DNA of 32,000 bases from Candidatus Babelota bacterium (GTDB lineage: Bacteria; Babelota; Babeliae; Babelales; Vermiphilaceae). Within the stretch, counting starts at the first letter, position 1. Every line of letters begins with the position of its first letter. The DNA is taken from NCBI GenBank assembly GCA_039809905.1, contig JBDHVY010000001.1, forward strand, positions 990,001 through 1,022,000, in the 5' to 3' direction. The notes beneath the pieces were generated by a model that was given only the letters and a program-made list of their open reading frames with translations, ran no database searches and was not told the DNA's origin. Both the position numbers and the translations under genes were made by a program. This document shows, in pieces, positions 7,478 through 32,000 of the stretch.

Positions 7478-8425
7478 TTAATACATTTTTACGGTTATAG
7501 GGATGATGTATGTCATTCGGAATGGGTCAGGTAAATATGTTGGAACAGGAGGAAATGCTGAACTTCCTTCTTCAAATATAAAAAGAAAGAAATTATCCCA
7601 AAGTTTATTTCCTGATGATTTTTTTATCATGAGTTCTTGTATAATACCGTCTCTATTTAACACAAAAAATAAATGCATCTCCCCATCTACGGGAAAACGC
7701 GGGATTTTGTGATCATTTATTCTCAAAGCATTTTGTAAACACCATTCCAATTTTTGTAAATAACGTTCATATTTCATTTGTTCATCAGAAGGAATGCCTC
7801 GTTTCATACCAAGCATCGATACACCATAAGAACCAGCATTTTCTTTTTTATGATCTAAAAATCCTTGCGTAAGTTGTGCAAGAGTAAGAGGAGGTTTTTG
7901 GGCAATCGGAATAGATTTATGTGGAGTTCTTTTAGGACGGGGTTTTCTTTTTTGTTCCACAGCAGTTTTTTGTGAAATTTTTGCTGTTTCTTGTACCACT
8001 ATTTCATTTTTTGCATATTCGGTACGCACTGTAGCTTCTTCTTTTATTTCTGGTGCTATTTCCTGTTTATTCTCAATTTTTTCTTCTATTACATCTTGAG
8101 CTGTCTGTGTGTTTTTCTGATCATCTTCAACAATTTTTGAGAGCTCTTTTTGTTGTGGGATATCCTCTTGGTCTGGTAAAGTGTCTTCAAAAAATACAGG
8201 AGCGCCAAAATTACCCGCACGAGCTTGAGTTTCCACCCAAGGCTTGTTTTGTTTTTGTTCTTGTTGTTGTTCTATTATTTCCCTCAGATGATCTTGCTCT
8301 GTATTTGTGGTCAGATTCGGGCGTGTTTTTTGTATAAAAATATAAAATACTGTGCTTACATGAAAAAGAAGAGATAAAAGAAGTGCTATGATCGTGATGT
8401 TTCTGCCCGTGGAAAGAAGATTCAT
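7478..8425 (-). CDS. TonB/TolA-family energy-transducer-like protein
   Basis: N-terminal anchor with an S-x3-H motif (IIALLLSLLFHVSTVFYIF). Long E/K/Q/P-rich spacer (KRKPRPKRTPHKSIPIAQKPP). C-terminal TonB-like block GEMHLFFVLNRDGIIQELMIKKSSGNKLWDNFF...FPPVP. Confidence 0.5.
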   Translation of the reverse strand: MNLLSTGRNITIIALLLSLLFHVSTVFYIFIQKTRPNLTTNTEQDHLREIIEQQQEQKQNKPWVETQARAGNFGAPVFFEDTLPDQEDIPQQKELSKIVEDDQKNTQTAQDVIEEKIENKQEIAPEIKEEATVRTEYAKNEIVVQETAKISQKTAVEQKRKPRPKRTPHKSIPIAQKPPLTLAQLTQGFLDHKKENAGSYGVSMLGMKRGIPSDEQMKYERYLQKLEWCLQNALRINDHKIPRFPVDGEMHLFFVLNRDGIIQELMIKKSSGNKLWDNFFLFIFEEGSSAFPPVPTYLPDPFRMTYIIPITVKMY

Positions 8426-8542
8426 AACATTCCCTTTTTTATTATTATTTTACGGGAATGTTTGATAAAAAGAAAATAAGATTTTTAAGGAGATCAACTG
8501 ATCGATAATCTTGAATATACCCAGCGAGCATATGATGTAGCT

Positions 8543-9334
8543 TTGCCTGTAGTTCAAGATGCAATATGTTTTTGGAATAATCATCGTGAAGATATTGCTT
8601 ATGAAAATGCTTTAGTGATGTATAAATATGATTTATTACGAGAGCATTTATTATTAGCAATGAAGCAGGCACTTAATGAGTTTTCTGTTGTGGCTGAGTA
8701 CTATCGTAATTGTAGAGGTGAGTGTATTCAGGCAAGCACTACTGTTATCAGTACCTTGAATGAAATTTCCTCAAAAGTTGATGATCGCAAGCAATGGGTA
8801 CTACAAGAAGAGAAAATTGCGCGTGGCAACGGTGCCATAGTAGAAGAATATTTTGCACAACGCAATATCTTAGTTATATCATTCAAAAATGAAGCTCAAA
8901 AGGAGTTTGGTAACCTCCGAAAAGAACGTGACACAGAGATTTTGAAAAAAATAGCTATTCAACAACAAGTAAATGTTGGTTTTTGTGGTGGGCCCAGGAA
9001 GGATGATGATGAGGGTGAGGAAAAAGCAGAAGATTTATCATCTTCAGTAACAATAAGTAAAGATGACGCTCCACACATGTTTGGAAATAGACCAGGACAT
9101 TTGATTGATACCCCAGCTAATAGAAAGCTTTTGATCGAGCTTGGTTCAAACAAAAATAATTTTCTTGGTTTAGATAAGCACGGGAATGAATGGTATGGAA
9201 AAATTATTGCAGATGGTAGACAGCTTTGGGCTAGCATGAGAAATCAGGTAATTAGAAATGGAGGCATTAATAATCCCCCAAGAATATTTCATCCTGATAC
9301 GGGTCTTTGTAAGCCTTTTAAATCTTTTAAATAG
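8543..9334 (+). CDS. Hypothetical protein with polymorphic-toxin-like C-terminal module (start codon uncertain)
   Basis: Helical N-terminal part, an acidic linker DDDEGEEKAEDLSSS, then HMFGNRPGHLIDTPANRKLL...GLDKHGNEWYGKIIADGRQLWASMRNQVIRNGGINNPPRIFHPDTGL. The frame opens at 8489 right after a TAAGGAG. The only in-frame starts are CTG 8498, ATC 8501, TTG 8543 and ATG 8618. Confidence 0.55.
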   Translation: MPVVQDAICFWNNHREDIAYENALVMYKYDLLREHLLLAMKQALNEFSVVAEYYRNCRGECIQASTTVISTLNEISSKVDDRKQWVLQEEKIARGNGAIVEEYFAQRNILVISFKNEAQKEFGNLRKERDTEILKKIAIQQQVNVGFCGGPRKDDDEGEEKAEDLSSSVTISKDDAPHMFGNRPGHLIDTPANRKLLIELGSNKNNFLGLDKHGNEWYGKIIADGRQLWASMRNQVIRNGGINNPPRIFHPDTGLCKPFKSFK

Positions 9335-9348
9335 AATAGAAAATATTT

Positions 9349-9720
9349 ATGAATAGTAATTTACTGCTAACTTCAATACAATCTTTTTATGCGATGCATC
9401 TTTTTTTGGAGCAATATTTTTACGTGACTTCGTCGGATAGCATTGGGGCTTTATTGGGATGTATGCATTTTTTGGAGGATGGAGATACAGCCGATCCAGT
9501 ACTATGGATAGATTGGCGTGAAATGGTCGGAGATGCGCCAATTACTCTTATGCAAGCATTTAAAACAATGAAAGTATTTTTAGATATATATTTTCAGGCG
9601 ACATCATCAAACAATGTGAAAAATATGTTGAATGATATAGGCCTTGTTATTAATGATAAGCCGGGAAAAGAAAAAATATGGGAAAAGTGGCTAATGTCGG
9701 TTGATAAGGTTTTTGAGTGA
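9349..9720 (+). CDS. Small cytoplasmic protein with two copies of a ~55-aa helical module (immunity-like)
   Basis: The ATG is 14 nt after the upstream stop. Module copies are LTSIQSFYAMHLFLEQYFYVTSSDSIGALLG...DPVLWIDWREMV and ITLMQAFKTMKVFLDIYFQATSSNNVKNML...IWEKWLMSVDKV. Confidence 0.65.
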   Translation: MNSNLLLTSIQSFYAMHLFLEQYFYVTSSDSIGALLGCMHFLEDGDTADPVLWIDWREMVGDAPITLMQAFKTMKVFLDIYFQATSSNNVKNMLNDIGLVINDKPGKEKIWEKWLMSVDKVFE

Positions 9721-9732
9721 TCCTAAGCTAAT

Positions 9733-10233
9733 ATGAATAATATAAAAATATCTCAATTAGATCAGTGCGAAATAATTATCAATGATCTAGTATATCTTTC
9801 AGGAAAGCAATCAGAAGAAACTTATCATAATATGTGGTGTATTAGTTTAGATGGTGATCTGATAAAAAATATTAAAATTGAACCACTAAAGTGTTTTATA
9901 GACAGATTAATCGAAAATAGAGAGCAACAAGTGCAATCCAGTAGTTCTTCTGGAAGCATTATTTTTTATATGTGGTTTGATAAACAGACACTGCAGTTAC
10001 GGTTTAATATTATAACAGGAAATGAAAGAACATTACCTTTTACGTGTAAGCTACAATTGTTTAATACTTATGAATCTATATTGAAAAATTTTATTAATAC
10101 AGTCCAAGAAGTTGATCAATTTGGAGATGATATTAAATTTTTTGATAAACAGGATATTAATTGGGATGAAGATGAACAAGAGTACATTTTGGATGTATTT
10201 GTAAAAAAATTGAATGCGAAAATCCATGAATAG
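9733..10233 (+). CDS. Hypothetical acidic protein, unrelated to its neighbours (possible second immunity type)
   Basis: Starts 12 nt after the upstream stop. No signal peptide. Acidic C-terminus (DINWDEDEQEY). No recognisable domain. Confidence 0.55.
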   Translation: MNNIKISQLDQCEIIINDLVYLSGKQSEETYHNMWCISLDGDLIKNIKIEPLKCFIDRLIENREQQVQSSSSSGSIIFYMWFDKQTLQLRFNIITGNERTLPFTCKLQLFNTYESILKNFINTVQEVDQFGDDIKFFDKQDINWDEDEQEYILDVFVKKLNAKIHE

Positions 10234-10423
10234 AAAAATTACGATTGAGGAAGGTTTTTGTGCAATGACTAAATTTTTGGAAAAGTGGTATGGATTTACA
10301 AAGTCAGATGATATAGCTTTTATGTTGAGTGGAATGAGCATGGATCCAGCTTTTTTGAAAGATTGGATTGAGTCTGTAGATATTGTTTTACGAGAACAAA
10401 ATAAAATGCATGAACATGATTAA
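10214..10423 (+). CDS. Small protein with a single copy of the ~55-aa module
   Basis: ITIEEGFCAMTKFLEKWYGFTKSDDIAFMLSGMSMDPAFLKDWIESVDIV. Start is the ATG at 10214 or 10226, and either overlaps the upstream stop at 10233. Confidence 0.55.
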   Translation: MRKSMNRKITIEEGFCAMTKFLEKWYGFTKSDDIAFMLSGMSMDPAFLKDWIESVDIVLREQNKMHEHD

Positions 10424-10799
10424 TACAATAACCCGATTACAAGCTTTTAAGGCTATGAATTGTTTTCTGGATGATTATTATACTAAAACACTGTCGGATG
10501 ATTTGGGATCTTTGTTAGGAGATACGCAGTTATTGGCGGATGAAAGTGGGACATGGGATTCTGTAGCATGGAATGATTGGTGTGTTGCTTTGGAAAAAAA
10601 GGAATCAATTACTCCCTTCGATGCTTTTAAAGGAATGTATAATTTTTTAAAGGCATATTATATAAGAACGTCTTGTTCTTCTCGTGATATAAAAGAAACA
10701 TTGGATAAAATAGATATTTCTGAAAAAAAACTTTTATCTTCTGCTGTATGGTGTTTTTGGATGGAATGTGTGCAAAAGATTGTTCATGAACAAGAATAA
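10410..10799 (+). CDS. Small protein with two copies of the ~55-aa module
   Basis: The ATG at 10410 overlaps the upstream stop (10421-10423). Module copies are ITRLQAFKAMNCFLDDYYTKTLSDDLGSLLG...WDSVAWNDWCVAL and ITPFDAFKGMYNFLKAYYIRTSCSSRDIKETL...VWCFWMECVQKI. Confidence 0.65.
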   Translation: MNMINTITRLQAFKAMNCFLDDYYTKTLSDDLGSLLGDTQLLADESGTWDSVAWNDWCVALEKKESITPFDAFKGMYNFLKAYYIRTSCSSRDIKETLDKIDISEKKLLSSAVWCFWMECVQKIVHEQE

Positions 10800-10800
10800 A

Positions 10801-10827
10801 TTATTAATTTTACATTGAAATTAATAA
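10801..10827 (+). terminator. Perfect 10-bp A/T-only hairpin directly after the operon stop (weak terminator candidate)
   Basis: TTATTAATTT-tacattg-AAATTAATAA starts 2 nt after the TAA at 10797-10799. The stem has no G/C and there is no clear U-tract, so confidence is low. Confidence 0.3.
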
Positions 10828-10914
10828 CTTATTGGTAAAATTTTGATAAAATCATTATAAAACAAGTACTCCAAAGATATACAATAAGTTGCACATATAC
10901 ATAAAGGCTTTCGT

Positions 10915-11751
10915 ATGAATTTCGCTATTATACCAAAGATACATTTGGCAACCTTACTGTTTCTTAGTTGTGTTAATATTCAGTGTAGTGAGTTAGCTTG
11001 CTATACTGAAAAACAACTTCAAGAATTAGATCATAAATTACCTTGTTCAACAAGAGATTATACCAATTATGAGTATGGGATCCGTGTTCAACATTCTTCT
11101 GGTACTGGTATGGGGATTGTTGGGAGTTACTATCCAGGTTCCAGCTCTCACAATCATACGCTGCAAGAAGTAAACTTTCGACCAATGAGTTTTGACAATA
11201 CTTTGTCACAAAAAAAAATCATTTTTATTTTAGAAAATAAAAATGGGGAAGGAATCATATTTGAACGCGAGAAAAACAGTACAAGCATGTGTCTAGATAG
11301 CAATTATTATCCTCGTAAAATCATAACCAAAAAAGCGTTAAACCTTATTGTAAAAGCTCTTAACAATATGCCTGGGATTATTACAGGTCCATATTTAGGT
11401 TTTCAGTCAGCTGATGGAAGCAACGAGGAAATTCTGCTCTTAAATCCCTTTATTCTTATTCAAAAGGAAGATCGCTTTGATGCTAGAAAAGGTTGCTTTG
11501 ATGGTAGAATGTATGTAACTATAAGCGTATTTGATAGATTAGTAGAACGTATCTGCAATTTGTTTCATATTCATGTGAGTACAATTTTTTTTGAAAAGGC
11601 ATCCAATAGTACTACAAAGGCAATACTTCGAGAAAAGTCAAAAAGCTCGTATTATGCAAAGCTTGCAGTTACAGGACTTGTTGTAGCGTTATTAGCTGAA
11701 TTCATTGGCAAAACCTTTTTCAATCCAGACGAATCCCTGCTTTTTAACTAA
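10915..11751 (+). CDS. Signal-peptide protein with C-terminal membrane anchor, unknown function
   Basis: N-terminal HLATLLFLSCVNIQC and a C-terminal hydrophobic helix YYAKLAVTGLVVALLAEFIG. The 3' end overlaps tilS convergently by 60 nt. Confidence 0.55.
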   Translation: MNFAIIPKIHLATLLFLSCVNIQCSELACYTEKQLQELDHKLPCSTRDYTNYEYGIRVQHSSGTGMGIVGSYYPGSSSHNHTLQEVNFRPMSFDNTLSQKKIIFILENKNGEGIIFEREKNSTSMCLDSNYYPRKIITKKALNLIVKALNNMPGIITGPYLGFQSADGSNEEILLLNPFILIQKEDRFDARKGCFDGRMYVTISVFDRLVERICNLFHIHVSTIFFEKASNSTTKAILREKSKSSYYAKLAVTGLVVALLAEFIGKTFFNPDESLLFN

Positions 11752-12684
11752 TACCCACTCTTTATAAAGAGCATGTTTTCCGCCACGTTCATGCGATAAA
11801 AAGCGAATAATTTCATCCAAGAATGTTTGAGTTACAGGAAATTGAACATTGTTGGCAATCAACCACAAAATAATAACGCGATGATGAAGGGAACGATGAA
11901 TAGTTTCAAATTTTTTTATATCAAAAACTTCAATAGTATCTTTTTTTATAATCAAGCTATCGAGTGTTGATTGAGCAATATCATTCAATAAAGCATCATC
12001 TTCCTTGAGGCGATTAATAGTTGCAAGAAAATTATTGTCCCACCGAGCATCAGATTCAATAAGTGCTGGAATGACTTTTTTGCGTATGCGATTGCGTAAA
12101 TAGTCATCAGATTCATTACTTGAATCAATTGCATATGCAATTGAATGTTGATTCAACCATTCTAAAATGTCTGATTTATTTGTTTCTAATAATGGCCGAA
12201 TATATAATCCATGCTTTGGATACATACCAGTCAATCCTGCTAAACTTGTTCCACGGATTAAGCGAATGAAAAATGTTTCTTGTTGATCTTGTGCATGATG
12301 GCCTAAGGCTATGCTATCAGCATTATATTCACGCAATACTTGTTGTAAAAATTGACGGCGCATAGTACGCGCATATTCTTCTTTTGAGCCACGATATTTT
12401 TTTTTGGTCATCGTTAACGATGACATTTTTGTTGAAATAAAATTAATATGTAATTTTTGTGCTAATGTGCGGCAAAACTCTTCTTCTGCATTAGCCTCTA
12501 CGCGCCATTCATGATTAAGATGGGCTGCAATAAGAGTTAGGTTGTATTTGTTTTGCAACGCAACTAATGTTCGCAATAAAAATACTGAGTCAGGCCCACC
12601 AGAGAGCCCAATGATTATTGTATTATTCGCTTCAATGAGCTTATGTTTTGTGATGTATGTTTCGATTTTTTCTAAAAAAAACAT
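11692..12684 (-). CDS. tilS: tRNA(Ile)-lysidine synthetase
   Basis: PP-loop IIIGLSGGPDSVFLL, AAHLNHEWR and ALGHHAQDQQETFFIRLIRG, which are typical TilS N-terminal domain motifs. Confidence 0.9.
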   Translation of the reverse strand: MFFLEKIETYITKHKLIEANNTIIIGLSGGPDSVFLLRTLVALQNKYNLTLIAAHLNHEWRVEANAEEEFCRTLAQKLHINFISTKMSSLTMTKKKYRGSKEEYARTMRRQFLQQVLREYNADSIALGHHAQDQQETFFIRLIRGTSLAGLTGMYPKHGLYIRPLLETNKSDILEWLNQHSIAYAIDSSNESDDYLRNRIRKKVIPALIESDARWDNNFLATINRLKEDDALLNDIAQSTLDSLIIKKDTIEVFDIKKFETIHRSLHHRVIILWLIANNVQFPVTQTFLDEIIRFLSHERGGKHALYKEWVLVKKQGFVWIEKGFANEFS

Positions 12685-12693
12685 GATATTTTA

Positions 12694-13242
12694 TCAGCTA
12701 GCTCTGTTTCTTATAGCGTACACAAAAGCTAGAATTCCTGCCATGCTTATGCTTACTGCTATGCCTAAAACCATTCCAAAAACAGTTCCACCCATAGCAT
12801 AATGTTGTTTCATTTCTGTGCCAGAGTTGTATCCTGCTTCATCTATTGTTTCAGGTTGAGGAATTTTAAGGAACAGTATTTTATGGAGTAACGTGCTCTT
12901 ACCATCTTTAACCACGACATATAAAGGATCATTCAGTGTTACTACATCGTTGTATGTCAAGGGTGAACATAATTCTTTGATGTTAGCAAATTGTTCTTCA
13001 GAGATTGTTATTCGTTTTAAAGGGTTTTTACCATCATGTATCACACCGCGTTTTTGTTTTTTATGGTAGTTAAGATAAAGAGGATTGCCGGTAAAGCCAT
13101 ATTGGCTGTAATTTTCAATTGATTGATTTTCTAAGGTGTTTTTTATTTCACACGGCAATGCTAGTTGATGCACTTGATTTTGACTAGACATCGTTTTCAA
13201 ACTTATCAGCAACAAACTAAGCAATATAAAATTTTTGTTCAT
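12694..13242 (-). CDS. Signal-peptide protein with C-terminal membrane anchor, unknown function
   Basis: MNKNFILLSLLLISLKTMSS N-terminus and a C-terminal helix GGTVFGMVLGIAVSISMAGILAFVYAI followed by RNRAS. Start is the ATG at 13242 or the TTG at 13257. Confidence 0.55.
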   Translation of the reverse strand: MNKNFILLSLLLISLKTMSSQNQVHQLALPCEIKNTLENQSIENYSQYGFTGNPLYLNYHKKQKRGVIHDGKNPLKRITISEEQFANIKELCSPLTYNDVVTLNDPLYVVVKDGKSTLLHKILFLKIPQPETIDEAGYNSGTEMKQHYAMGGTVFGMVLGIAVSISMAGILAFVYAIRNRAS

Positions 13243-13316: not shown

Positions 13317-15788
<2,472 letters not shown>

Positions 15789-17763: not shown

Positions 17764-19611
17764 ATGTGTACTGTTGTGGGCTACATAGGAAAGTCTTTTT
17801 GTAGTACATTCATTTTTGAGAGTCTTGCTCGCTTAGAATATCGCGGATATGATTCTGCAGGGTTTGCGTGCCTTGATCCAATTAATCAAAAACTTCTTTA
17901 TTCAAAATCTTCTGGTCAACTCATTAATTTAGCTGAAAAAGTTAAAAAAGATCCCTTTGATGGTTTTTTGGGGATTGGTCATACCCGCTGGTCAACCCAT
18001 GGTGATACATCGCATGAAAATGCCCATCCTCATTTTGATTGTTCAAAAACTATTTCTGTAGTTCATAATGGGATTATCGAAAATTATCTTGAATTAAAAC
18101 AACAAATGCTCAATAACGGGCATTTATTTTTTTCAGAAACAGATACAGAAGTTGTGAGTCATTTATTTGAATCCTTATTACAAAAAAAGGATTTGTCAGA
18201 ACGTGATGTTTCTATTCTTGTGCAACAATTGCATGGTGCCTATGCTTTTATTGTAATGTTGCAAACGTTTCCTGATGTTCTTATTGTGGTGCGTAAAAAG
18301 TCACCATTATGCATTGGCATAGGTGGTAATGAAATGTTTATAGCATCAGATGTTATTGCTTTTGCGGATAAAACACAGAGAGTGCTTTTTTTGCCTGACG
18401 AAAGTTTTGCGTTTGTTTTTCGTGATACTATTCAATTGTATGATTTTCAAGGCAATAAGCTTTTTGCACAAGAGCAAAGAATAGATGCACAATTTGAGCA
18501 ATCACATAAAGGTGAGTATGCGCATTTTATGCTCAAAGAAATATATGAACAAAAAAATGCCATCACAAGGACAATTGAATCATTAAAAGGTAATAAAACT
18601 GTTCTTTTGGAGCAACTTGGTCTTAGTCAGCAACATGTACAAGATATAGAGCAAGTACAGTTTATAGCATGTGGAACATCCTGGCACGCAGCACGTATGG
18701 CTCAATTCTTTTTTGAAGGGATTGTACATATTCCTGTTACGGTGAGTTTAGCTTCTGAATTTAGGTATGGATCTTTTTTCCCTAACAAAAATACTCTGTA
18801 TATTTTTATCTCGCAATCAGGTGAAACAGCTGATGTTCTTGAAGCATTGCGATTAATTAATGCGTATCATTTATCAACGATTGCAATAACTAATGTTGCT
18901 ACAAGTACTATCGTGCGGGAAGCAAAAGGTTTTTTACTCACATGTGCAGGGACTGAAGTAGCTGTTGCTTCAACCAAAGCATTTTCAACTCAGCTTGCAG
19001 CACTTTATTGGTTAGCGCACTATATTGCGCTTGAAAAGAATATGATTGAACAAAAAGATATGCTGCAAGTAGAAAATGATGTGCTTGATGTTGCGCACAT
19101 TCTTGAGGATGCAATTGAATATCATAAAAATGTGATTGATCATAGCGATGCCGTGCGATACGCCTGTTATGATAAGGCTTTATTTTTGGGTAGACACATT
19201 AGTTATCCGTTGGCTATGGAAGCTGCATTAAAATTAAAAGAAATAGCATATGTGTTTGCAGAGAGTTATGCTGCTGGTGAATTAAAACACGGCCCTCTTG
19301 CATTAGTTGATGCTATGATGCCGGTTTATATTTTTTCTCATAAAGATCCTATCATCTACCAAAAACTACTTTCTAATGCGCATGAAGTAAAAGCGCGTGG
19401 AGGTATAATTGTTGCATTTGCGTATAGAGATCAACATGAATTATGTGCACTGGCAGAAACAGTATTTACGATTTCCGAAAATATACCAACACTATTGGGA
19501 CCATTAGCAATGATCGGCCTTATACAATATTTTGTCTATGCCATAGCAAGAGAGCGCGGATGTCCAATCGATAAGCCGCGCAATTTAGCAAAATCAGTTA
19601 CCGTGGAATAG
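17764..19611 (+). CDS. glmS: Glutamine--fructose-6-phosphate aminotransferase (isomerising)
   Basis: N-terminal catalytic Cys (MCTVVGYIG), GIGHTRWSTHG, two SIS domains (CGTSWHAA, SQSGETADV) and a C-terminal LAKSVTVE. Confidence 0.97.
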   Translation: MCTVVGYIGKSFCSTFIFESLARLEYRGYDSAGFACLDPINQKLLYSKSSGQLINLAEKVKKDPFDGFLGIGHTRWSTHGDTSHENAHPHFDCSKTISVVHNGIIENYLELKQQMLNNGHLFFSETDTEVVSHLFESLLQKKDLSERDVSILVQQLHGAYAFIVMLQTFPDVLIVVRKKSPLCIGIGGNEMFIASDVIAFADKTQRVLFLPDESFAFVFRDTIQLYDFQGNKLFAQEQRIDAQFEQSHKGEYAHFMLKEIYEQKNAITRTIESLKGNKTVLLEQLGLSQQHVQDIEQVQFIACGTSWHAARMAQFFFEGIVHIPVTVSLASEFRYGSFFPNKNTLYIFISQSGETADVLEALRLINAYHLSTIAITNVATSTIVREAKGFLLTCAGTEVAVASTKAFSTQLAALYWLAHYIALEKNMIEQKDMLQVENDVLDVAHILEDAIEYHKNVIDHSDAVRYACYDKALFLGRHISYPLAMEAALKLKEIAYVFAESYAAGELKHGPLALVDAMMPVYIFSHKDPIIYQKLLSNAHEVKARGGIIVAFAYRDQHELCALAETVFTISENIPTLLGPLAMIGLIQYFVYAIARERGCPIDKPRNLAKSVTVE

Positions 19612-19613
19612 AC

Positions 19614-20015
19614 TTAGTCTCTCTCATCCCAAGATTTTGTGGTTCTTTCTAATTGTTGGAATAATGCTGTAGATTCTTTCATTTTTGCAATTATTATGTG
19701 TCGTTCCACTGGATAGGGTTTTCCTGGATAGTAAATAAGCTGGTTCCTATGTTTATAATCAAGAAGTTGCTTAATGATTTCATCATTTTCTTTGAGCTTG
19801 ATTATTAATTTTTCACATAATTGGCGAGTAGCAAAATCTGGAGTAGATTTTTCATAATAGCTTGAGTGTAGAATTGATTTACTTGAATGAAAGTCTCTCA
19901 TAATTCCTCTGGTTCTGCGTAATGAAGATGTTCGAGTTGCTAAAAGCATCCCAAGTGTGGTATGAGAATACGTAAAGATGAGTGTAGTAATCATTAAATG
20001 GATTGTCATTTTCAT
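19614..20015 (-). CDS. Small secreted protein (family member A)
   Basis: Hydrophobic N-terminus, then the basic stretch MLLATRTSSLRRTRG, then a helical region EKLIIKLKENDEIIKQLLDY. It is last in a co-oriented, tightly packed gene run. Confidence 0.5.
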   Translation of the reverse strand: MKMTIHLMITTLIFTYSHTTLGMLLATRTSSLRRTRGIMRDFHSSKSILHSSYYEKSTPDFATRQLCEKLIIKLKENDEIIKQLLDYKHRNQLIYYPGKPYPVERHIIIAKMKESTALFQQLERTTKSWDERD

Positions 20016-20017
20016 TT

Positions 20018-20305
20018 TTATTCCGTAGTGTCATCAGAATTGTTCAATTGTAAAGCAGTTGTTATTCTTCGGTTATTTTTTTTTATCTGGTCTTCTAAGT
20101 CCCATATTTTACGTATGCCTACCGATGAATTTCCTCTGAGTAAACGTAATGTTTCTCTATGGATTTTATTTTCTTTGCGAAGTATGGCGCAATATTCTTT
20201 CGTTGTAAGTGATCTTGAAAGTTTTGTTAAAAGCGTGCAAAAGCTTGAGCTATGCATGATAAGTGCCTGAGTAATAAAAAATAAGAAAAATGTTGTTTTA
20301 TTCAT
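20018..20305 (-). CDS. Small secreted protein (family member B)
   Basis: MNKTTFFLFFITQALIMHSSS, then TLLTKLSRSLTTKEY. 2-nt gap to the downstream gene and 8-nt overlap with the upstream gene. Confidence 0.45.
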   Translation of the reverse strand: MNKTTFFLFFITQALIMHSSSFCTLLTKLSRSLTTKEYCAILRKENKIHRETLRLLRGNSSVGIRKIWDLEDQIKKNNRRITTALQLNNSDDTTE

Positions 20306-20765
20306 TTGGATGGCCTTTATATTGGGCTTCTAAAATTAATTGATTAATTCTGAAGCTTACCAGCGAGTGTTTTTCATGATCTTCTTTGATGGCAAACTCT
20401 AGTAATTTTAATTTTTTAATGTCCAAAGGTTCATCGTTATAAGTATAATTAATTGCTGTAATGTCCTGTTGTTTTATATTTTTTACAAGCCGTTGAGCGA
20501 TATTTTCTTGTTCTTGCAATAATTTGTATAATTCTTTATTTCTCTCATGAACTGATTCTAAAAATATTGAACTGTTTTTCGATATTTCTGTCTCTGATAC
20601 ATCAAGAAATTTTTTTTGAGTCATTGTGTTCAGTCTTTTATTTGTGTGATATGTTCTCACAGACAAATGCTTTTCATAACCCAAACGCCTTACTAACATA
20701 CTGAACAAGGAGGTGCTGCTTACCAATACGCCTGTGATAATGCTCAGAGCAATAAATTTCTTCAT
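20298..20765 (-). CDS. Small secreted protein (family member C)
   Basis: MKKFIALSIITGVLVSSTSLFS, then MLVRRLGYEKHLSVRTYH, then a helical region NKELYKLLQEQENIAQRLV. Confidence 0.5.
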   Translation of the reverse strand: MKKFIALSIITGVLVSSTSLFSMLVRRLGYEKHLSVRTYHTNKRLNTMTQKKFLDVSETEISKNSSIFLESVHERNKELYKLLQEQENIAQRLVKNIKQQDITAINYTYNDEPLDIKKLKLLEFAIKEDHEKHSLVSFRINQLILEAQYKGHPNE

Positions 20766-20770
20766 GGGAC

Positions 20771-21130
20771 TTACTTTTTTTCTTGTGTATTATTAGTTGA
20801 ATTATTTCTATAGCGCATATTATGTTCAGGAATAAATGTATCATCATGATCTAAGTGTACAACAGCTGCTAATGCTTCAAAGTTATGAAACAAAATGGAT
20901 TCATTTTTTTCTAATTTATCAATACGTTCTTGTAGTTTTTGAATTGTCATTCTGATTTTATCCTGTTGAGATAGTTCAGGATGTCCACCATTGTAAAATC
21001 TAACGAAATGTGGTTTTTTATAAAATCTTGTTTGTGGTTGCACATTTCTTTGGCGTAATAATGCGGCCATTGGATGAATAGATACTACTGACAGGCATGA
21101 TAATAACCCGGCGATATTCATTAATTTCAT
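20771..21130 (-). CDS. Small secreted protein (family member D)
   Basis: MKLMNIAGLLSCLSVVSIHPMA, then ALLRQRNVQPQTRFY, then a helical region IRMTIQKLQERIDKLEKNE. Confidence 0.5.
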   Translation of the reverse strand: MKLMNIAGLLSCLSVVSIHPMAALLRQRNVQPQTRFYKKPHFVRFYNGGHPELSQQDKIRMTIQKLQERIDKLEKNESILFHNFEALAAVVHLDHDDTFIPEHNMRYRNNSTNNTQEKK

Positions 21131-21159
21131 ACGATACTCCGTTAAAGATGTCTGTTGCC

Positions 21160-21687
21160 TTAACTTATAATAGATTTGTTGCGCATTAGATTATGTATTC
21201 GAGAATTTTCTTGTTCAACTAATTCCTTGAGCTCATTTTTGTTTTTTATTTTTGATTTTATATATACAGTGCTTTTGCTAAACCAATAATAACGAGTATG
21301 GTGCCCTAAGTAATTTGTAGGGTTTTCATTTATACAATAATGACCGTCATGCTTTGTTATCTTATTTGGATGATAACCATACATATCTTCTATAGTTTTT
21401 ATTTGATCAAAAATAGCTTTTGTGAGTGGATTCTGTTCATAATCAATACTGAAAAAATAGTTTTTTATTGAAAGCGTAAAGGGAGGCTCATTAAGTTCAG
21501 GATTTTTAATTTCTTTTTTAGAAGTTAATAGGTTTAGTGAATTTATTTTTTTTTGTATATCGGAGATACCATGAAGATCGATATATAGTAATACTAATCT
21601 TTTTTCAATATCATTTAATGATTTATGCATTGCATTAAGATGATATGGTACTATAAAAAATGCCATAATAGAGAACAACTTGATCAC
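21160..21687 (-). CDS. Small secreted protein, unknown function
   Basis: MIKLFSIMAFFIVPYHLNA signal-like N-terminus. The GTG start overlaps the upstream stop (GTGA). Confidence 0.5.
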   Translation of the reverse strand: MIKLFSIMAFFIVPYHLNAMHKSLNDIEKRLVLLYIDLHGISDIQKKINSLNLLTSKKEIKNPELNEPPFTLSIKNYFFSIDYEQNPLTKAIFDQIKTIEDMYGYHPNKITKHDGHYCINENPTNYLGHHTRYYWFSKSTVYIKSKIKNKNELKELVEQENSRIHNLMRNKSIIS

Positions 21688-22442
21688 GATAATTCCTTTT
21701 TTTGTCTAAGCTTGCGCCATTGTGATTCTGCTTTTTCAGGATCAAAGTTGTTGACTCGTTCATCGCATCCTGAATAACGAATGCCAATAAAGGATATGTT
21801 ATACGATTGCAAAGCTTTTTCAACTGATATGAGATATTTCATTTTATCGTCAACGAATATTATTTTTTCAGGATAATAATTCATGTAATCAAAAAGACAT
21901 AATAAAGCCTGGCCTTTATCATTATTGCCACCAAATAAAATGCTGTTTTTATAAAAACAAGGATGTGGCATGGATAGTACTAAATCATCTTGACTGAAAT
22001 CTGGTACTAAAAATTGGATATCGATATTTTCAAGCTGCTCCAGTGTTCTTTCTGCAACAAAAAGACTGCGTGTAGAAAGGGCCATTATAGGGATGTTATA
22101 TTTTATGAGTTGTGATGTCAGAAAAGGAACAATATTTTCTGTTGGTTCCAGATCAACATTAAATTGTGCATAATAAGTGACGGGCAATGCATAATAAATA
22201 GCAGTAAGGTAATCATGGCCTTGCGCCATTTTTTTGTCCACTAAATGGCAAAACCATTCATCGCTGCTCAATTCTTCTGTCGGATGTGCTAGTGTATTAT
22301 CAATATCAAAGATGACTAACGTTCCGGGGGTAATATAATTGAGCACGGTTTCAATTTTATTGCTTTCAATTATCAGGCACTTAATAGATACATTAGAGAA
22401 TAAAACCAACCATAAAATAGATATGAAGTTATATTTTTTCAT
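21684..22442 (-). CDS. Signal-peptide-bearing HAD-like protein (resembles the DUF2608-type HAD-like family, from memory)
   Basis: MKKYNFISILWLVLFSNVSIKC, then HAD motif I LVIFDIDNTLAHP...SSDEWF, and a motif IV-like IIFVDDKMKYL. The start overlaps the ctp stop by 1 nt. Confidence 0.6.
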   Translation of the reverse strand: MKKYNFISILWLVLFSNVSIKCLIIESNKIETVLNYITPGTLVIFDIDNTLAHPTEELSSDEWFCHLVDKKMAQGHDYLTAIYYALPVTYYAQFNVDLEPTENIVPFLTSQLIKYNIPIMALSTRSLFVAERTLEQLENIDIQFLVPDFSQDDLVLSMPHPCFYKNSILFGGNNDKGQALLCLFDYMNYYPEKIIFVDDKMKYLISVEKALQSYNISFIGIRYSGCDERVNNFDPEKAESQWRKLRQKKELS

Positions 22443-23974: not shown

Positions 23975-24154
23975 GTCATTCCTTTTTTCTTTTAATACAA
24001 GCTAAATGTTGTAACGCAAGTCAATATAATTCTAATCCCATGTTTTGTTTCTTTTCACATGGGGATCTCATAAAAAACGAGAAGTATTTAATTAGAGGTT
24101 AATAGATGTGTATGCTTCAACTACTGTCAAGGAAAATAAAAAAGAAAGGGGTGT

Positions 24155-24436
24155 ATGATACACGTAAAGCAATTATGTATGAGACTCTTATTGGTTATTG
24201 AAATGGCTGGATTCGGGTATTTATATATTTTTGGTAACAACGGCATGCAAGCCCTTGGTGTGCAACGAGCTATAGTCTTAGATTTAGAAAAAAATGTTGC
24301 GCAATTAAAAGATGAAATTGAGCTGTTAAAAAATGATATTTATGCCTGGCAGACTGATGATTTTTATAAAGAAAAAGTTGCACGTGAACAATTGCAAATG
24401 GCGCGTAAAGGCGATGAGCTTTTTTATATTGGATAA
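24155..24436 (+). CDS. ftsB: Septum formation initiator FtsB/DivIC-family protein
   Basis: A single N-terminal TM helix, the coiled coil LEKNVAQLKDEIELLKNDI, and the conserved tail DDFYKEKVAREQLQMARKGDELFYI. Confidence 0.75.
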   Translation: MIHVKQLCMRLLLVIEMAGFGYLYIFGNNGMQALGVQRAIVLDLEKNVAQLKDEIELLKNDIYAWQTDDFYKEKVAREQLQMARKGDELFYIG

Positions 24437-24468
24437 ATCAGTTTTTTTGGTATGATTAATCCGCGTTC

Positions 24469-24663
24469 ACCCTTCAACAAGTTCAGGGCGAGCGCAGCGA
24501 GGAATTAACGCTGTGTTTACTACTGACGGTGTCCGAAGAAGCTTTAGCGAAGTCGGAGCCTGTCGAAGTATCGGCGACGCGAGAAAAGATTTGAATTTTA
24601 AAAAATACTTTTTTAGTCTTATTAAATTTTATTATTGAGCTCATCCTGAACTTGTTGAAGGGT
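24469..24663. repeat. Intergenic repeat element, copy B, bounded by perfect 19-bp inverted repeats
   Basis: ACCCTTCAACAAGTTCAGG at 24469-24487 and its exact reverse complement CCTGAACTTGTTGAAGGGT at 24645-24663. The internal core is homologous to 17529-17650. Confidence 0.8.
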
Positions 24664-24689
24664 TAGCGCACATATTAAGGAACCTTCTC

Positions 24690-25307
24690 ATGAAATTTAC
24701 TTTACCATCGTTGCCGTATGAATACGGCGCTCTTGAGCCATATATTGATGCACAAACAATGGAAATTCATCACACAAAGCATCATCAAGCATATATCAAT
24801 AATTTAATTGCAGCATTGGAAAAGCATCCTGAATTTGAACCGACATCATCTGCCAGTCTTTTGATTGATTTACCAGCTGTTCCTTCTGATATTCGTGCGG
24901 CAGTACGCAATAATGGTGGTGGCCATTTTAATCATTCATTATTTTGGCAGATCATGAAACCTAACGGCGGTGGAGAACCTAATGGATTGCTTGCGCAAGA
25001 AATTAAAAAAATATTTGGAAGTTTTGCAGAATTTCAAGAATTATTTAATGCCCAAGCAAAAGCAGTTTTTGGCAGTGGCTGGGCATGGCTTTCCGTTGGT
25101 AAAGATGGGAAATTGGTGATAACGGGTTTACCAAATCAAGATTGTCCGCTTTCTTTTGATGAAACGCCTATTATGGGTCTTGATGTGTGGGAACATGCTT
25201 ATTATTTAAAGTATCAAAATAAACGTCCTGATTATATTTCAGCATGGTGGCATGTCATTAATTGGGATATGGTAGAAGAAAATTATCGTTCAATTATTAA
25301 AAAATAA
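24690..25307 (+). CDS. sodA: Superoxide dismutase, Mn-type by signature residues
   Basis: [26 protein letters not shown] and [32 protein letters not shown] and LPNQD match the Mn-type rather than the Fe-type pattern (inference from E. coli SodA/SodB signatures). Confidence 0.9.
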
Positions 25308-29159: not shown

Positions 29160-29789
29160 CTATTCTTTATTAATGGTGTTAAGTTTTGTAGGCTCTATAG
29201 TTTTTGGCTTTATGTGAATATTATTATTATGCATTTCCAATGCTTTGCACAAAGCTAAGTTATCTGTATACAGAAATAGTCCATGTGTGGTTTCTTGATC
29301 TTTACCATTAATATTGGCACAAAATACGCAAGGGATTTCAGTAACTGGTTCTTGATCATCTAATTTTTGACCTTTTGGTGACATAATTGGCGCAGTATAG
29401 CGAGTGCCTTTGTGATGCGGATATTTTGGATTATGCTTCATATTGTTAAAAAAATTCTCAGGAGATTCATTATCTTGCTCAAAAAAATCATATTTGCTAG
29501 CGCAAGCTATTGAACTATGAAAAAGATCGCATCCCACGTAGTCAATTATGTTACCAATTGTACTGATACGCTTATTGGAGTAACTATTGTAAACCGGTCT
29601 AACTATTGTTGTCTTAGCTAAATCTTCAGGAGAAATAGGCAAAACATCACCAAGCTCATTTGCATTAAAAGGCATGATAAATGTTTGAGACTTGAGGGCA
29701 GTATTGTTAGTTGATTCTGTTGAATTATTAGCAAAAATAGCAACAGTATAAAATAGTGATAATGGAAGGAGCATTTTTTGTATAGACAT
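29160..29789 (-). CDS. Secreted hypothetical protein (first gene of a three-gene operon)
   Basis: MSIQKMLLPLSLFYTVAIFA signal peptide. Cys-containing, with no recognisable domain. 8-nt gap to the next gene. Confidence 0.55.
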   Translation of the reverse strand: MSIQKMLLPLSLFYTVAIFANNSTESTNNTALKSQTFIMPFNANELGDVLPISPEDLAKTTIVRPVYNSYSNKRISTIGNIIDYVGCDLFHSSIACASKYDFFEQDNESPENFFNNMKHNPKYPHHKGTRYTAPIMSPKGQKLDDQEPVTEIPCVFCANINGKDQETTHGLFLYTDNLALCKALEMHNNNIHIKPKTIEPTKLNTINKE

Positions 29790-29841
29790 TATATATCCTT
29801 TATTAATGTATTATTAATCTCTATTAGATCTTACTAGTTTG

Positions 29842-29869
29842 AGTATATCAAAATCGCAGAAAATGTCAA
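29842..29869 (-). promoter_or_regulatory. Sigma70-type promoter (copy 1 of a duplicated promoter block)
   Basis: The minus strand reads TTGACA (29864-29869)-N16-TGaTATACT (-10 at 29842-29847), about 50 nt upstream of the ATG at 29789. Confidence 0.55.
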
Positions 29870-29897
29870 ATAGAAAATCAATGGATGGTAGGTCGAG

Positions 29898-30278
29898 TTA
29901 ATTAGCGTTTTGTGGTTTTTTATCTATAAGAATTAACGTAGAGTGGCTTTGTTGTAGTTCATTGTAATATTTTGTTAAGGATGCATCATCTCCTGTTGTT
30001 GCGATACCTATAAATGTGCATACATCAAAATATTTGGTTCTTTTGCCATATTCATTTAATGCGTATATTTCGTATAAAAAATCATCAGCTTTTAACTTTT
30101 GCTGGGCTTGCTGTAAGAATTCATTTTTTCTCATTTCACCAAGAAAGCATTTTTCATTATGATTAACAGCCCATAACATCCTCTTGCTGAATCTATGATC
30201 AGTTGCTTGGATTGATTGAGGTAAATGAGCGATAGAACCTAAAGTAATTACAGAAAAAAGTATAGATTTTATAGTCAT
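29898..30278 (-). CDS. Small secreted protein, unknown function
   Basis: MTIKSILFSVITLGSIAHLPQSIQA signal peptide. Similar size and position to the MIMKKSIF-family genes, but only weak similarity to them. Confidence 0.55.
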   Translation of the reverse strand: MTIKSILFSVITLGSIAHLPQSIQATDHRFSKRMLWAVNHNEKCFLGEMRKNEFLQQAQQKLKADDFLYEIYALNEYGKRTKYFDVCTFIGIATTGDDASLTKYYNELQQSHSTLILIDKKPQNAN

Positions 30279-30318
30279 AATGATTCCTTTTCTATTGTAA
30301 TAATTGCTTTTTATTATA

Positions 30319-30346
30319 AATATAGCACAATCGCAGAAAATGTCAA
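30319..30346 (-). promoter_or_regulatory. Sigma70-type promoter (copy 2 of the duplicated promoter block)
   Basis: The minus strand reads TTGACA (30341-30346)-N16-TGcTATATT (-10 at 30319-30324), about 40 nt upstream of the ATG at 30278. Confidence 0.55.
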
Positions 30347-30404
30347 ATAGAAAACCTTGCGCTGAAAAGAATCATTCAGACGTTGTTTTTGATGCAAGAA
30401 AAAA

Positions 30405-30431
30405 GCCTTATGCAAGGCATAAAGCTTTTTT
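30405..30431 (-). terminator. Rho-independent terminator after the 30460-30807 gene
   Basis: The minus-strand RNA reads GCUUUAUGC-cuu-GCAUAAGGC (9 bp including one G-U pair) followed by U6. It lies 29 nt after the stop. Confidence 0.6.
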
Positions 30432-30459
30432 CATAAATATGGTAAAATTTCAGTATTAT

Positions 30460-30807
30460 TTAACTTTTAGATGGCTCATTTTTGAAGTATTTTGCATGAT
30501 ATTTACCAAATGCTTTTTCTAATTCGGTGTCATCATTTCCTTTTACGAAAACGATTAAATATTTACAATCACCTTTATCATCAGGAAATCTGGTTATGGT
30601 ATGCATGTGTTGTGTTACCGGTTCTCCAAAAATTTTTTCAGCTTCATTAATAAACTCATTTATTTCTGTTCTATACATAAAGCAAACAGATGGATAAGTT
30701 GCTCTAGGAGTAAATGTCCTACAAACTGCGTGGGCTTGCGTGTCAGCTAAAATAATATTCGTTAATCCACATATTAATACTAAAAAAATTGATTTTTTCA
30801 TAATCAT
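30460..30807 (-). CDS. Small secreted protein, MIMKKSIF family paralogue 2
   Basis: MIMKKSIFLVLICGLTNIILADTQA, AEKIFGEPVTQH and LIVFVKGND. AAGGA RBS upstream. Confidence 0.6.
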   Translation of the reverse strand: MIMKKSIFLVLICGLTNIILADTQAHAVCRTFTPRATYPSVCFMYRTEINEFINEAEKIFGEPVTQHMHTITRFPDDKGDCKYLIVFVKGNDDTELEKAFGKYHAKYFKNEPSKS

Positions 30808-30958
30808 ATATAATTCCTTAGATAATTAATGTTTCTTTTTTTTAAGATACTATAATTTCAAAAAAATACCAAATAGAAAAAACATTTCTGTTCTATTGCA
30901 AATAGTATCGATAACAATGTATTTTTTTTAAAATTACTATCGTCAAGAAGGGGATAAA

Positions 30959-32000
30959 ATGAAGTATGCATCGAAAATAGGCATAATGACGGGTGTTGTT
31001 GTATTGTTTTTTATGATACACAGAGGGATTGATGCTTTCGATATCTGGGAAACATACGATAAAGCAAAAAATGCAGCAACCTATGCAAAAGAAAGAGTTT
31101 CTAGTGCTGTTTCAACGGGGATTGAATATTTCACAGGGGGTAAAGAACCAACAGCCATCAGAATTAATCCTTATAAAAATACTGTTGCATATATACGTAA
31201 AGGCAATGAATTAAATCCTCAAGAACGGCAATATAGAGAAAAACGACAACCAAAAGTAAAACAAGCGCTTGAAAAAGTAGTTGGCAGATCATTAAATGAT
31301 TCGCAAGTTCCGCGTATATCAATTGTGGCGAGTGGCGGTGGCTATAGAGCTATGTTAGGAACAATAGGAAGTTTGTTGGCGCTCGAAAAAATCGGAATTC
31401 TTGATGCTGCCATGTATATGGTTGGATTATCTGGTTCAACATGGGCAATAGCTTCATGGTTATCAACGGGAATGTCTTTACAAAATTTTAAAGATTACAT
31501 TCAAAAAACGATAGAAAAAAATATTCGTGTTCGGAGTATAAGTGAAACAAAAAATATTATTGATATGCTTTCGGTGAAACTTGTATTTGATGAACCAATA
31601 ACAACCGTTGATATGTACGGGAGTTTACTTGCAAATCGTTTATTGAGTCATTATGGAACTGATGCGCAAAGAGTTTATCTATCGCAACAAGCTGAACGAA
31701 TCAAAAATGCGGATGTTCCGTATCCTATTTATACGTCAATTGATGCACGCGAAGCAGTTGCGCGAGAGCCGCATTGGTTTGAATACACGGCACATGAAGT
31801 TGGATCGCCCTATTTTGCTGTATATGTTCCGAGCTGGGCATATGGACGTCTTTTTGATAATGGGCAATCAATAAATTTTGCTCCAGAGCAGAGTTTAGGA
31901 TTTTTGATGGGCACATGGGGATCTGCATATGGTGTGCATGTTGCAAGAGCATGGGAAGATATTTCAGAATCTATTCCGGGTACGACTATCAAAAAAGCAA
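30959..32000 (+). CDS. cPLA2-type (PLA2_B / lysophospholipase catalytic domain) phospholipase, 3'-truncated by the window edge
   Basis: This ORF is absent from the supplied track because it has no stop in the window. I translated it by hand from the ATG at 30959 without finding any stop. There is an N-terminal anchor IGIMTGVVVLFFMI. Then ISIVASGGGYRAMLGTIGSLLALEKIGILDAAMYMVGLSGSTW, which nearly mirrors the human cPLA2-alpha GGGFRAM...GLSGSTW catalytic-Arg/Ser region as I recall it. Confidence 0.8.
   Translation, partial: MKYASKIGIMTGVVVLFFMIHRGIDAFDIWETYDKAKNAATYAKERVSSAVSTGIEYFTGGKEPTAIRINPYKNTVAYIRKGNELNPQERQYREKRQPKVKQALEKVVGRSLNDSQVPRISIVASGGGYRAMLGTIGSLLALEKIGILDAAMYMVGLSGSTWAIASWLSTGMSLQNFKDYIQKTIEKNIRVRSISETKNIIDMLSVKLVFDEPITTVDMYGSLLANRLLSHYGTDAQRVYLSQQAERIKNADVPYPIYTSIDAREAVAREPHWFEYTAHEVGSPYFAVYVPSWAYGRLFDNGQSINFAPEQSLGFLMGTWGSAYGVHVARAWEDISESIPGTTIKKA

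Follow-up and report, generated by a model that had tools for sequence, protein, structure and literature searches.

A probable 5′-truncated polymorphic toxin gene with an array of immunity genes in a Candidatus Babelota genome

Results

A 32,000-nucleotide stretch of a Candidatus Babelota genome (GCA_039809905.1, contig JBDHVY010000001.1, positions 990,001 to 1,022,000 of the forward strand; hereafter the window, GC ~35%) carries five plus-strand open reading frames (ORFs) between a divergent TonB-like gene and an ORF of 278 aa. We conclude, at a probability of about three in four, that this locus holds a decapitated polymorphic-toxin gene, ORF1, together with immunity genes, and that it represents an orphan-like, probably undeliverable remnant with an immunity array. 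An initial annotation, made from the DNA letters, had described five same-strand ORFs with 14-nt (ORF1/ORF2) and 12-nt (ORF2/ORF3) gaps and two overlaps, and the ORF list and coordinates agree with this: ORF1 spans 8543-9334 (263 aa from TTG 8543), ORF2 9349-9720 (123 aa, isoelectric point (pI) 4.6), ORF3 9733-10233 (166 aa, acidic, GC 27%), ORF4 10214-10423 (65-69 aa) and ORF5 10383-10799 (127-138 aa by start choice). ORF3 and ORF4 overlap at 10214-10233, and ORF4 and ORF5 at 10410-10423 if ORF5 starts at ATG 10410; alternative ATG starts are present at 10226 and 10416.

The C-terminal module of ORF1 is shared by many toxin carriers

The toxin module of ORF1 comprises the C-terminal 95 aa (9047-9334, pI 9.9) and is joined to the preceding region by an acidic, Ser-rich linker that we read from the sequence, RKDDDEGEEKAEDLSSS (8996-9046). 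The linker and module sequences quoted in the initial annotation were exact on re-reading. A profile built from three modules and searched against 1.84 billion representatives retrieved 1438 at E<=1e-3 and 1033 at E<=1e-10. In the best 150 proteins, which span 97-3073 aa, the module ends <=5 aa from the C-terminus in 145/153 instances, bearing out the motif that the initial annotation had associated with the C-termini of polymorphic toxins. Pfam domains on the carriers include RHS repeats, PT-HINT (23/111), Intein/Hint_2, MafB and PT-TG, and the module is also borne by signal-peptide proteins. A C-terminal toxin domain common to unrelated N-terminal regions is characteristic of polymorphic toxins, and the proposal that the terminal ~90 aa of ORF1 are such a module stands. 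Near-invariant residues (module numbering) are H10, F12, G17, H18, D21, T22, N25, R26, Q59, W61, R65, G72, G73 and N75.

Among GTDB genomes, in a scan set that left out the window's own genome, the module is present in Thiotrichaceae, Thiomargarita, Simkaniaceae and other Chlamydiota, Polyangiaceae, Burkholderiaceae, Campylobacteraceae, Thermoanaerobaculia, a candidate phyla radiation (CPR) bacterium and a Staphylococcaceae metagenome-assembled genome (MAG). A word-indexed homologue search returned two relatives, one of which, P0003, is an Rhs tip with DPFGLW ahead of the module; as this search overlooked P0072 (56% identity), its output is not taken as evidence of absence. At locus L001, an Rhs tip with DPFGLW and the module is followed by a 68-aa homologue of the immunity unit described below. 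The best profile match (P0071, 511 aa) has two tandem modules at its C-terminus (~315-410 and ~416-511) behind a signal peptide, and a Chlamydiae MAG (L008, 6001-7184) contains two consecutive module/immunity pairs, the second toxin being a 128-aa orphan-like ORF.

The module has no match in Pfam, NCBIfam or PDB. Pfam searches with 60 single module sequences gave chance-level matches only (e.g. NDUFA12, and one PBECR3 match at E 0.12), and sequence and profile searches of PDB returned only a spurious CylK propeller-blade motif and NDUFA12.

ORF1 appears to be cut at the island boundary

The initial annotation took ORF1 for a complete toxin that lacks a delivery domain and left its route of delivery open. 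Comparison with full-length relatives does not support this, as homology to them runs upstream of the start to a stop codon at the island edge. In a phmmer search against the 150 best carriers, residues 1-168 of ORF1 show homology to the interior of longer toxin-family proteins, including P0072 (474 aa, E 1.6e-46), P0077 (487 aa), P0075 (588 aa), P0157, P0188, P0148 and P0104. The first canonical start of ORF1 is TTG 8543, which gives the same 263-aa protein in public gene calls, and the tblastn homology passes upstream of it, beginning at 8489/8492, the first or second codon after an in-frame TAA stop at 8486-8488. The operon had been placed as beginning at 8486; that position is the first base of this stop. 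The point where the homology begins corresponds to residue 193 of P0072, 208 of P0077 and 319 of P0075. The resulting frame, ORF1′ (8489-9334, plus strand), has 281 open codons and is 56% identical to P0072 residues 193-474, 44% to P0077 and 41% to P0075. Matches to the longer carriers by phmmer, with an agreeing alignment register, delimit the pre-toxin region remnant at 8489-8995. Judged by these alignments, the N-terminal "domain" of the initial annotation would be the C-terminal half of a conserved pre-toxin region.

The full-length relatives (P0072, P0077, P0075 and a 428-aa protein of locus L024) range from 428 to 588 aa, and their N-termini read by eye as signal-peptide-like. P0072 and P0075 show a hydrophobic segment rich in Gly. 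Hint domains occur in some members: PT-HINT is above the Pfam threshold in P0188 and P0104 only, P0075 has a sub-threshold Hint_2, P0148 shows a Hint-like motif by eye, P0077 has a Hint-like motif with no Pfam match, and P0072 lacks the domain. Next in all of these proteins come a pre-toxin region conserved over some 200-300 aa, an acidic linker and lastly the module; linkers equivalent to that of ORF1 are present in P0072, P0077 and P0075. ORF1′ itself has no Pfam or NCBIfam domain, no Hint domain (PF07591, the mark of PT-HINT carriers) and no signal peptide or other N-terminal trafficking feature. From these comparisons, ORF1 appears to be 5′-truncated, with the first ~190 codons or more gone, including the signal peptide and hydrophobic segment. 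The lack of a delivery domain would thus be explained because the gene is cut at the island boundary.

The position of the cut is consistent with the flanking DNA. Toxin homology begins only about 60 nt from where the divergent TonB-like gene starts (7478-8425, minus strand, weak TonB_2 match); this is the divergent upstream gene noted initially. DNA homology to the TonB-like upstream region of the closest relative (L019) runs to ~8475. The left island junction (8476-8488) holds the in-frame TAA and separates this conserved upstream region from the toxin homology; the truncation point falls at the left island boundary. An AAGGAG is positioned at 8487-8492, 5 nt before an in-frame CTG at 8498; the window has just 5 copies of this rare hexamer, and many of its genes are preceded by the related AAGGA.

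A 5′-truncated toxin gene that keeps conserved-region homology and is followed by immunity is the arrangement of an orphan cassette. No second toxin or pre-toxin copy, and no adjoining full-length carrier, is found within the window. The 278-aa signal-peptide protein encoded downstream was considered as the lost N-terminal half of the toxin and rejected, having no similarity to any carrier.

Against the homologous cassette of a related genome (L003), dN/dS is 0.25 for ORF1 and 0.13 for ORF2; values for the retained genes range from 0.13 to 0.26, and that of the flanking tilS is 0.16. The retained genes are not decaying.

ORF2, ORF4 and ORF5 are built from one putative immunity unit

ORF2, ORF4 and ORF5 are paralogous and contain two, one and two copies, respectively, of a single ~60-aa unit. 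A hidden Markov model (HMM) of the unit matches ORF4 with E 4e-25 and ORF5 in two domains with E 2e-29 and 9e-27. The downstream products are acidic, as had been stated (pI 4.6-5.6), compared with the basic toxin module (pI 9.9).

A unit homologue is the next gene in 19/21 module loci from many phyla, a putative immunity gene directly downstream of the toxin and co-varying with it as in polymorphic-toxin systems. The initial annotation had asked whether homologues of the module never sit beside such small genes; these pairings show that they do. In 16/18 instances (L001, L003-L018) the unit homologue starts -4 to +19 nt from the toxin stop, and the two exceptions are degenerate modules. At L022, L024 and L026, too, an immunity homologue is located just downstream of each toxin match. 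The paired loci come from Gammaproteobacteria, Chlamydiota, Myxococcota, CPR bacteria, Campylobacterota, Acidobacteriota and the Staphylococcaceae MAG. The immunity family numbers 67 matches, all annotated "hypothetical" and devoid of Pfam domains. Judged by these database searches, the toxin module and the immunity unit appear to be two families absent from Pfam, NCBIfam and PDB, and new in the sense of being unannotated.

ORF2 begins immediately past the toxin stop, across the 14-nt gap, and its identity to the genes behind the full-length toxins is 78% in L003 and 74% in L024. By position and similarity, ORF2 is likely the cognate immunity protein. Its AlphaFold model (predicted local distance difference test (pLDDT) score 94.6) consists of two tandem three-helix units, for which a Foldseek search of PDB found no solved analogue (none at E<=0.001).

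ORF3 stands apart. No match to its product was found in Pfam, NCBIfam, PADLOC, PHROGs, L003, L024 or any other locus examined, and its protein cluster has a single member. We rejected ORF3 as an immunity paralogue, as it has no similarity to the ~60-aa unit or to anything else searched. The earlier proposal of a cognate immunity gene with an array of extra ones consequently holds for ORF2, ORF4 and ORF5, whose family adjoins the module in most loci, but not for ORF3, which is without homologues. Likewise, the amplified paralogues that had been suggested are the three genes sharing the unit; ORF3 is unrelated.

The cassette occupies different sites in related genomes

The window GyrB is 86% identical to those of MAGs named Candidatus Babeliales (Dependentiae/TM6). 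In the closest relatives, L019 and L020 (GyrB 92% and 90% identical), gyrB, tilS and the TonB-like gene are adjacent and the cassette is absent; L019 has a 187-aa gene between gyrB and tilS. In L003 (tilS 72% identical), the full-length toxin P0072 is followed by homologues of ORF2 (78% identical), ORF4 (74%) and ORF5 (70%) in the same order, and this cassette lies on the other side of tilS. In L024 (7557-9222), the full-length 428-aa toxin with a signal peptide and an ORF2-type gene are inserted between S41 peptidase/FtsB-like genes and a SOD gene; the counterpart of this site in the window (~23975-24690) is intergenic. The cassette is thus found at three different positions in three genomes, and only the window copy is truncated. 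Because the L024 site is intergenic in the window, the cassette appears to move between housekeeping sites in Babeliales. Gene lengths in L003 are to be read with caution, since frameshift errors in this assembly are likely: gyrB is called in at least five fragments at 10500-12950 of a 1.05-Mb ENA contig, which looks like long-read frameshift errors.

By comparison with these genomes, positions 8476-11751 of the window appear to form a lineage-specific island. Its last gene is the 278-aa ORFan (10915-11751, plus strand), whose product begins with a signal-peptide-like stretch and has a hydrophobic C-terminus. This gene shares 60 nt with the 3′ end of tilS (11692-12684) and has no homologue in L003, L019, L020, L024 or any related locus. 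Downstream of the array, this ORF is followed by convergent tilS and gyrB.

At the syntenic position in L019, the interval between tilS and the TonB-like gene (13341-13961) holds 620 nt of non-coding DNA with 43% GC, compared with ~35% for the genome, and no ORF >65 aa. It contains runs such as GGGGGTGTGGGGGGCCAGATAAGGGCCCCACCAC and resembles a structured RNA. Neither Rfam, in gathering or E-value mode, nor ARAGORN returned anything credible for it, and it has no homologue in the window, L003 or L020. Within the window, 19600-21700 and 29500-31000 are 29-31% GC with small minus-strand ORFs lacking Pfam matches, and may be further lineage-specific islands. The Babeliales-like contig that encodes P0077 (JGI 3300041966) carries, in order, a 513-aa gene, a gene for a 99-aa colicin-E3-like 'Cytotoxic' domain, a DUF6980 gene, a 206-aa gene, P0077 and a 121-aa immunity homologue, with a Gp49 gene and an ankyrin-repeat gene near this array.

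The toxin module may adopt a BECR-type ribonuclease fold

An AlphaFold (AF2) model of the module from a 60-sequence alignment has a pLDDT of 94.5. In it, a short strand and helix at the N-terminus precede a core helix (H23-34) and an antiparallel sheet of four strands (E39-42, E48-53, E59-65, E68-75), a layout that matches the canonical one of BECR ribonucleases (RNases) as given in bioRxiv 10.64898/2026.09.18.752725. Significant structural or profile similarity to an established BECR member was not found: Foldseek searches of PDB and BFVD with the toxin model gave no match at E<=0.001. The initial annotation had proposed looking for a profile or fold similarity; the confident model has a BECR-like layout, and there is no significant Pfam, PDB or Foldseek match. 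We consider it an even chance that the toxin is a metal-independent RNase of BECR-type topology, a prediction made because of the BECR layout of the model, the conserved His, His and Arg, and the basic charge; the module also has conserved Asp, Asn and Gln beside these residues.

Two known toxin families were compared with the module. Membership of the SRLase1 family was rejected, as the conserved residues of the module differ from SRLase1 R70, D72, H85 and H97. Ntox26 is described as an alpha+beta domain with KHxx[DE], Q, W and H, found on HINT/RHS/FilH carriers and predicted to be a two-histidine RNase (Zhang et al. 2012, PMC3482391). The module is likewise alpha+beta, many modules have K-H near the start, Q-x-W is invariant and the carrier types are the same; however, the second His of the module precedes Q/W, the residue order misfits and Ntox26 has no listed immunity protein. 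As the comparison was by description and not by sequence, the likeness to Ntox26 is a lead only.

Signals flanking the array

An A/T-only inverted repeat lies directly 3′ of the ORF5 stop (10801-10827, plus strand). Reported initially as a perfect 10-bp hairpin, it is present and, if one G-U pair is allowed, reaches 12 bp. The stem consists of A/T throughout, RNAfold gives a free energy of -6.7 kcal/mol and a T-tract is lacking; the repeat went uncalled in the terminator scan, and as an intrinsic terminator it is not convincing. Promoter and terminator scans were no richer than shuffled sequence (11 promoter-like sites compared with a mean of 15.2, and 1 terminator-like site compared with 0.9). 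Searches of Pfam, NCBIfam, PADLOC and PHROGs gave zero matches for the products of the five ORFs and the 278-aa ORF or for P0072, and none of the five products belongs to a toxin-antitoxin or defence family known to these resources.

Discussion

An immunity island with an orphan toxin cassette is the most economical reading of this locus. Intact relatives would combine a Sec signal peptide, an optional Hint autoprotease, a hydrophobic segment, the pre-toxin region of ~300 aa, the acidic linker and the ~90-aa toxin. Such a protein would be exported by Sec, possibly with a type II system; the Hint domain, where present, would cut itself off; the C-terminal toxin would then act on a rival cell; and the small, acidic, helical protein encoded downstream would bind the basic toxin and protect the producer. 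Dependentiae encode Sec and gspD (type II secretion) components (PMC4776705, PMC6561590), and HINT carriers have been assigned to Sec/type II, type V, type VII and TcdB routes, never to type VI secretion (Zhang et al. 2012, PMC3482391). The window copy, if made, either from TTG 8543 or from a non-canonical start behind AAGGAG 8487, would be cytoplasmic and neutralised by ORF2. Its present role would most likely be immunity, with five units in three genes directed against the same toxin family from co-infecting relatives, and the toxin remnant would be an orphan cassette that could recombine onto a full-length carrier.

Several observations weigh against this account. The 281-codon frame of ORF1′ is intact and shows purifying selection across the divergence that was measured, and the strong Shine-Dalgarno-like AAGGAG sits exactly at the junction; the remnant may thus be no inert relic but an expressed, functional gene. 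With dS near saturation, a recent and an old truncation are indistinguishable. The two assemblies that show the truncation (one from Logan) are identical over 11,117 nt and may share reads. Orphan cassettes of contact-dependent inhibition (CDI) and Rhs systems lie downstream of a full-length gene, and the window has none. The best BECR-type Foldseek match to solved RNases is HigB, at a TM-score of 0.36 and E 0.5, which is not significant. An RNase role of the putative toxin is a prediction from the models.

The intact frame with its dN/dS of 0.25 and the AAGGAG at the junction would also suit a complete stand-alone toxin that travels by an unrecognised route, such as outer-membrane vesicles, piggy-backing on a secreted protein or lysis of the parasite, with the retained helical region as an adaptor. 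Chromulinavorax sheds outer-membrane vesicles early in infection (PMC6561590), and 83/149 of the best representatives are <300 aa. We nevertheless hold this explanation to be improbable: homology to longer proteins reaches the first codon past the stop, a conserved start is missing, the toxins of both syntenic or related cassettes are ~190 residues longer and have a signal peptide, and many of the short members are contig-edge fragments or obvious orphans (L022, L004-L013). Similarly improbable in our estimate is an intracellular toxin-antitoxin, addiction or abortive-infection module, in which the truncated toxin and ORF2 would stabilise the island or answer stress or phage. The missing export signal, the tight coupling across the 14-nt gap and the purifying selection on both genes would fit such a module. 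However, neither PADLOC nor PHROGs gives a match, secreted carriers have the module at their C-terminus throughout the family, a toxin-antitoxin module would not need 175 residues of pre-toxin sequence, and three immunity genes per toxin fit an immunity array better than a toxin-antitoxin pair.

That the module is an effector against the protist host, with the small downstream proteins as chaperones or unrelated, we regard as very improbable. The lineage consists of obligate intracellular parasites, and most toxins of intracellular bacteria have been argued to be host-directed (Zhang et al. 2012, PMC3482391); yet the same authors tie host-directed toxins to missing immunity genes, whereas the toxin-immunity pair is kept in 19/21 loci, mostly in lineages not known as intracellular, and the window copy has no export signal.

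The decapitated toxin with its immunity array has counterparts among known systems. As in PT-HINT polymorphic toxins (PF07591; Zhang et al. 2012, PMC3482391), the module is swapped among carriers and an immunity gene lies directly downstream, and the ORF1 relatives P0188 and P0104 have a signal peptide and PT-HINT. Unlike these toxins, the window protein has neither signal peptide nor HINT, through truncation; in Babeliales-type relatives Hint is N-terminal, before the hydrophobic segment and a conserved region of ~300 aa, rather than directly before the toxin; and the toxin and immunity domains of the window match no Pfam model. BECR-fold RNase toxins (barnase, EndoU, colicin D/E5, RelE/HigB) and the 'BECR-like' superfamily (bioRxiv 10.64898/2026.08.28.747851; 10.64898/2026.09.18.752725) share with the module a small basic domain, conserved His/Arg, polymorphic-toxin context and acidic immunity proteins; the module differs in lacking significant sequence, profile or Foldseek similarity to solved members.

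The orphan CdiA-CT/CdiI and Rhs-CT/RhsI modules are the known toxin/immunity cassettes of CDI and Rhs systems. They resemble the window locus in having a 5′-truncated toxin gene with part of the conserved region kept, no export signal and cognate immunity next to it, and L001 is a classical Rhs-tip orphan with the same module and an immunity gene. The window differs in that no full-length carrier lies upstream, the cassette abuts a housekeeping gene and there is no VENN/DPxGL motif.

The system is a standard polymorphic toxin/immunity locus that leaves current concepts unchanged and adds members and a lineage. What had looked like a delivery-less toxin is a false lead that can be removed, being in all likelihood a truncated copy of an ordinary Sec-exported polymorphic toxin. 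Two large uncovered families yield a clean toxin/immunity pair with confident models for both (pLDDT 94.5 and 94.6), and the locus illustrates how a single cassette can occupy three chromosomal positions among related reduced genomes and, in one of them, apparently be decapitated.

A further-reaching interpretation, which we hold to be doubtful, is that both the module, as an RNase toxin fold variant, and the three-helix unit, as an immunity fold, are new, that the Babeliales cassettes are mobile, and that the export-less remnant is kept as an addiction/immunity island and is not a dead gene. If true, mobile cassettes at three sites would mean that obligate intracellular Babeliales fight each other with secreted toxins inside the host. 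The lineage is new for polymorphic toxins: Dependentiae carry cassettes with immunity genes, and our literature search found no paper combining Dependentiae with polymorphic toxins. Immunity genes have been described as notably absent in intracellular bacteria (Zhang et al. 2012, PMC3482391); their presence in Dependentiae points to competition between co-infecting bacteria inside protists.

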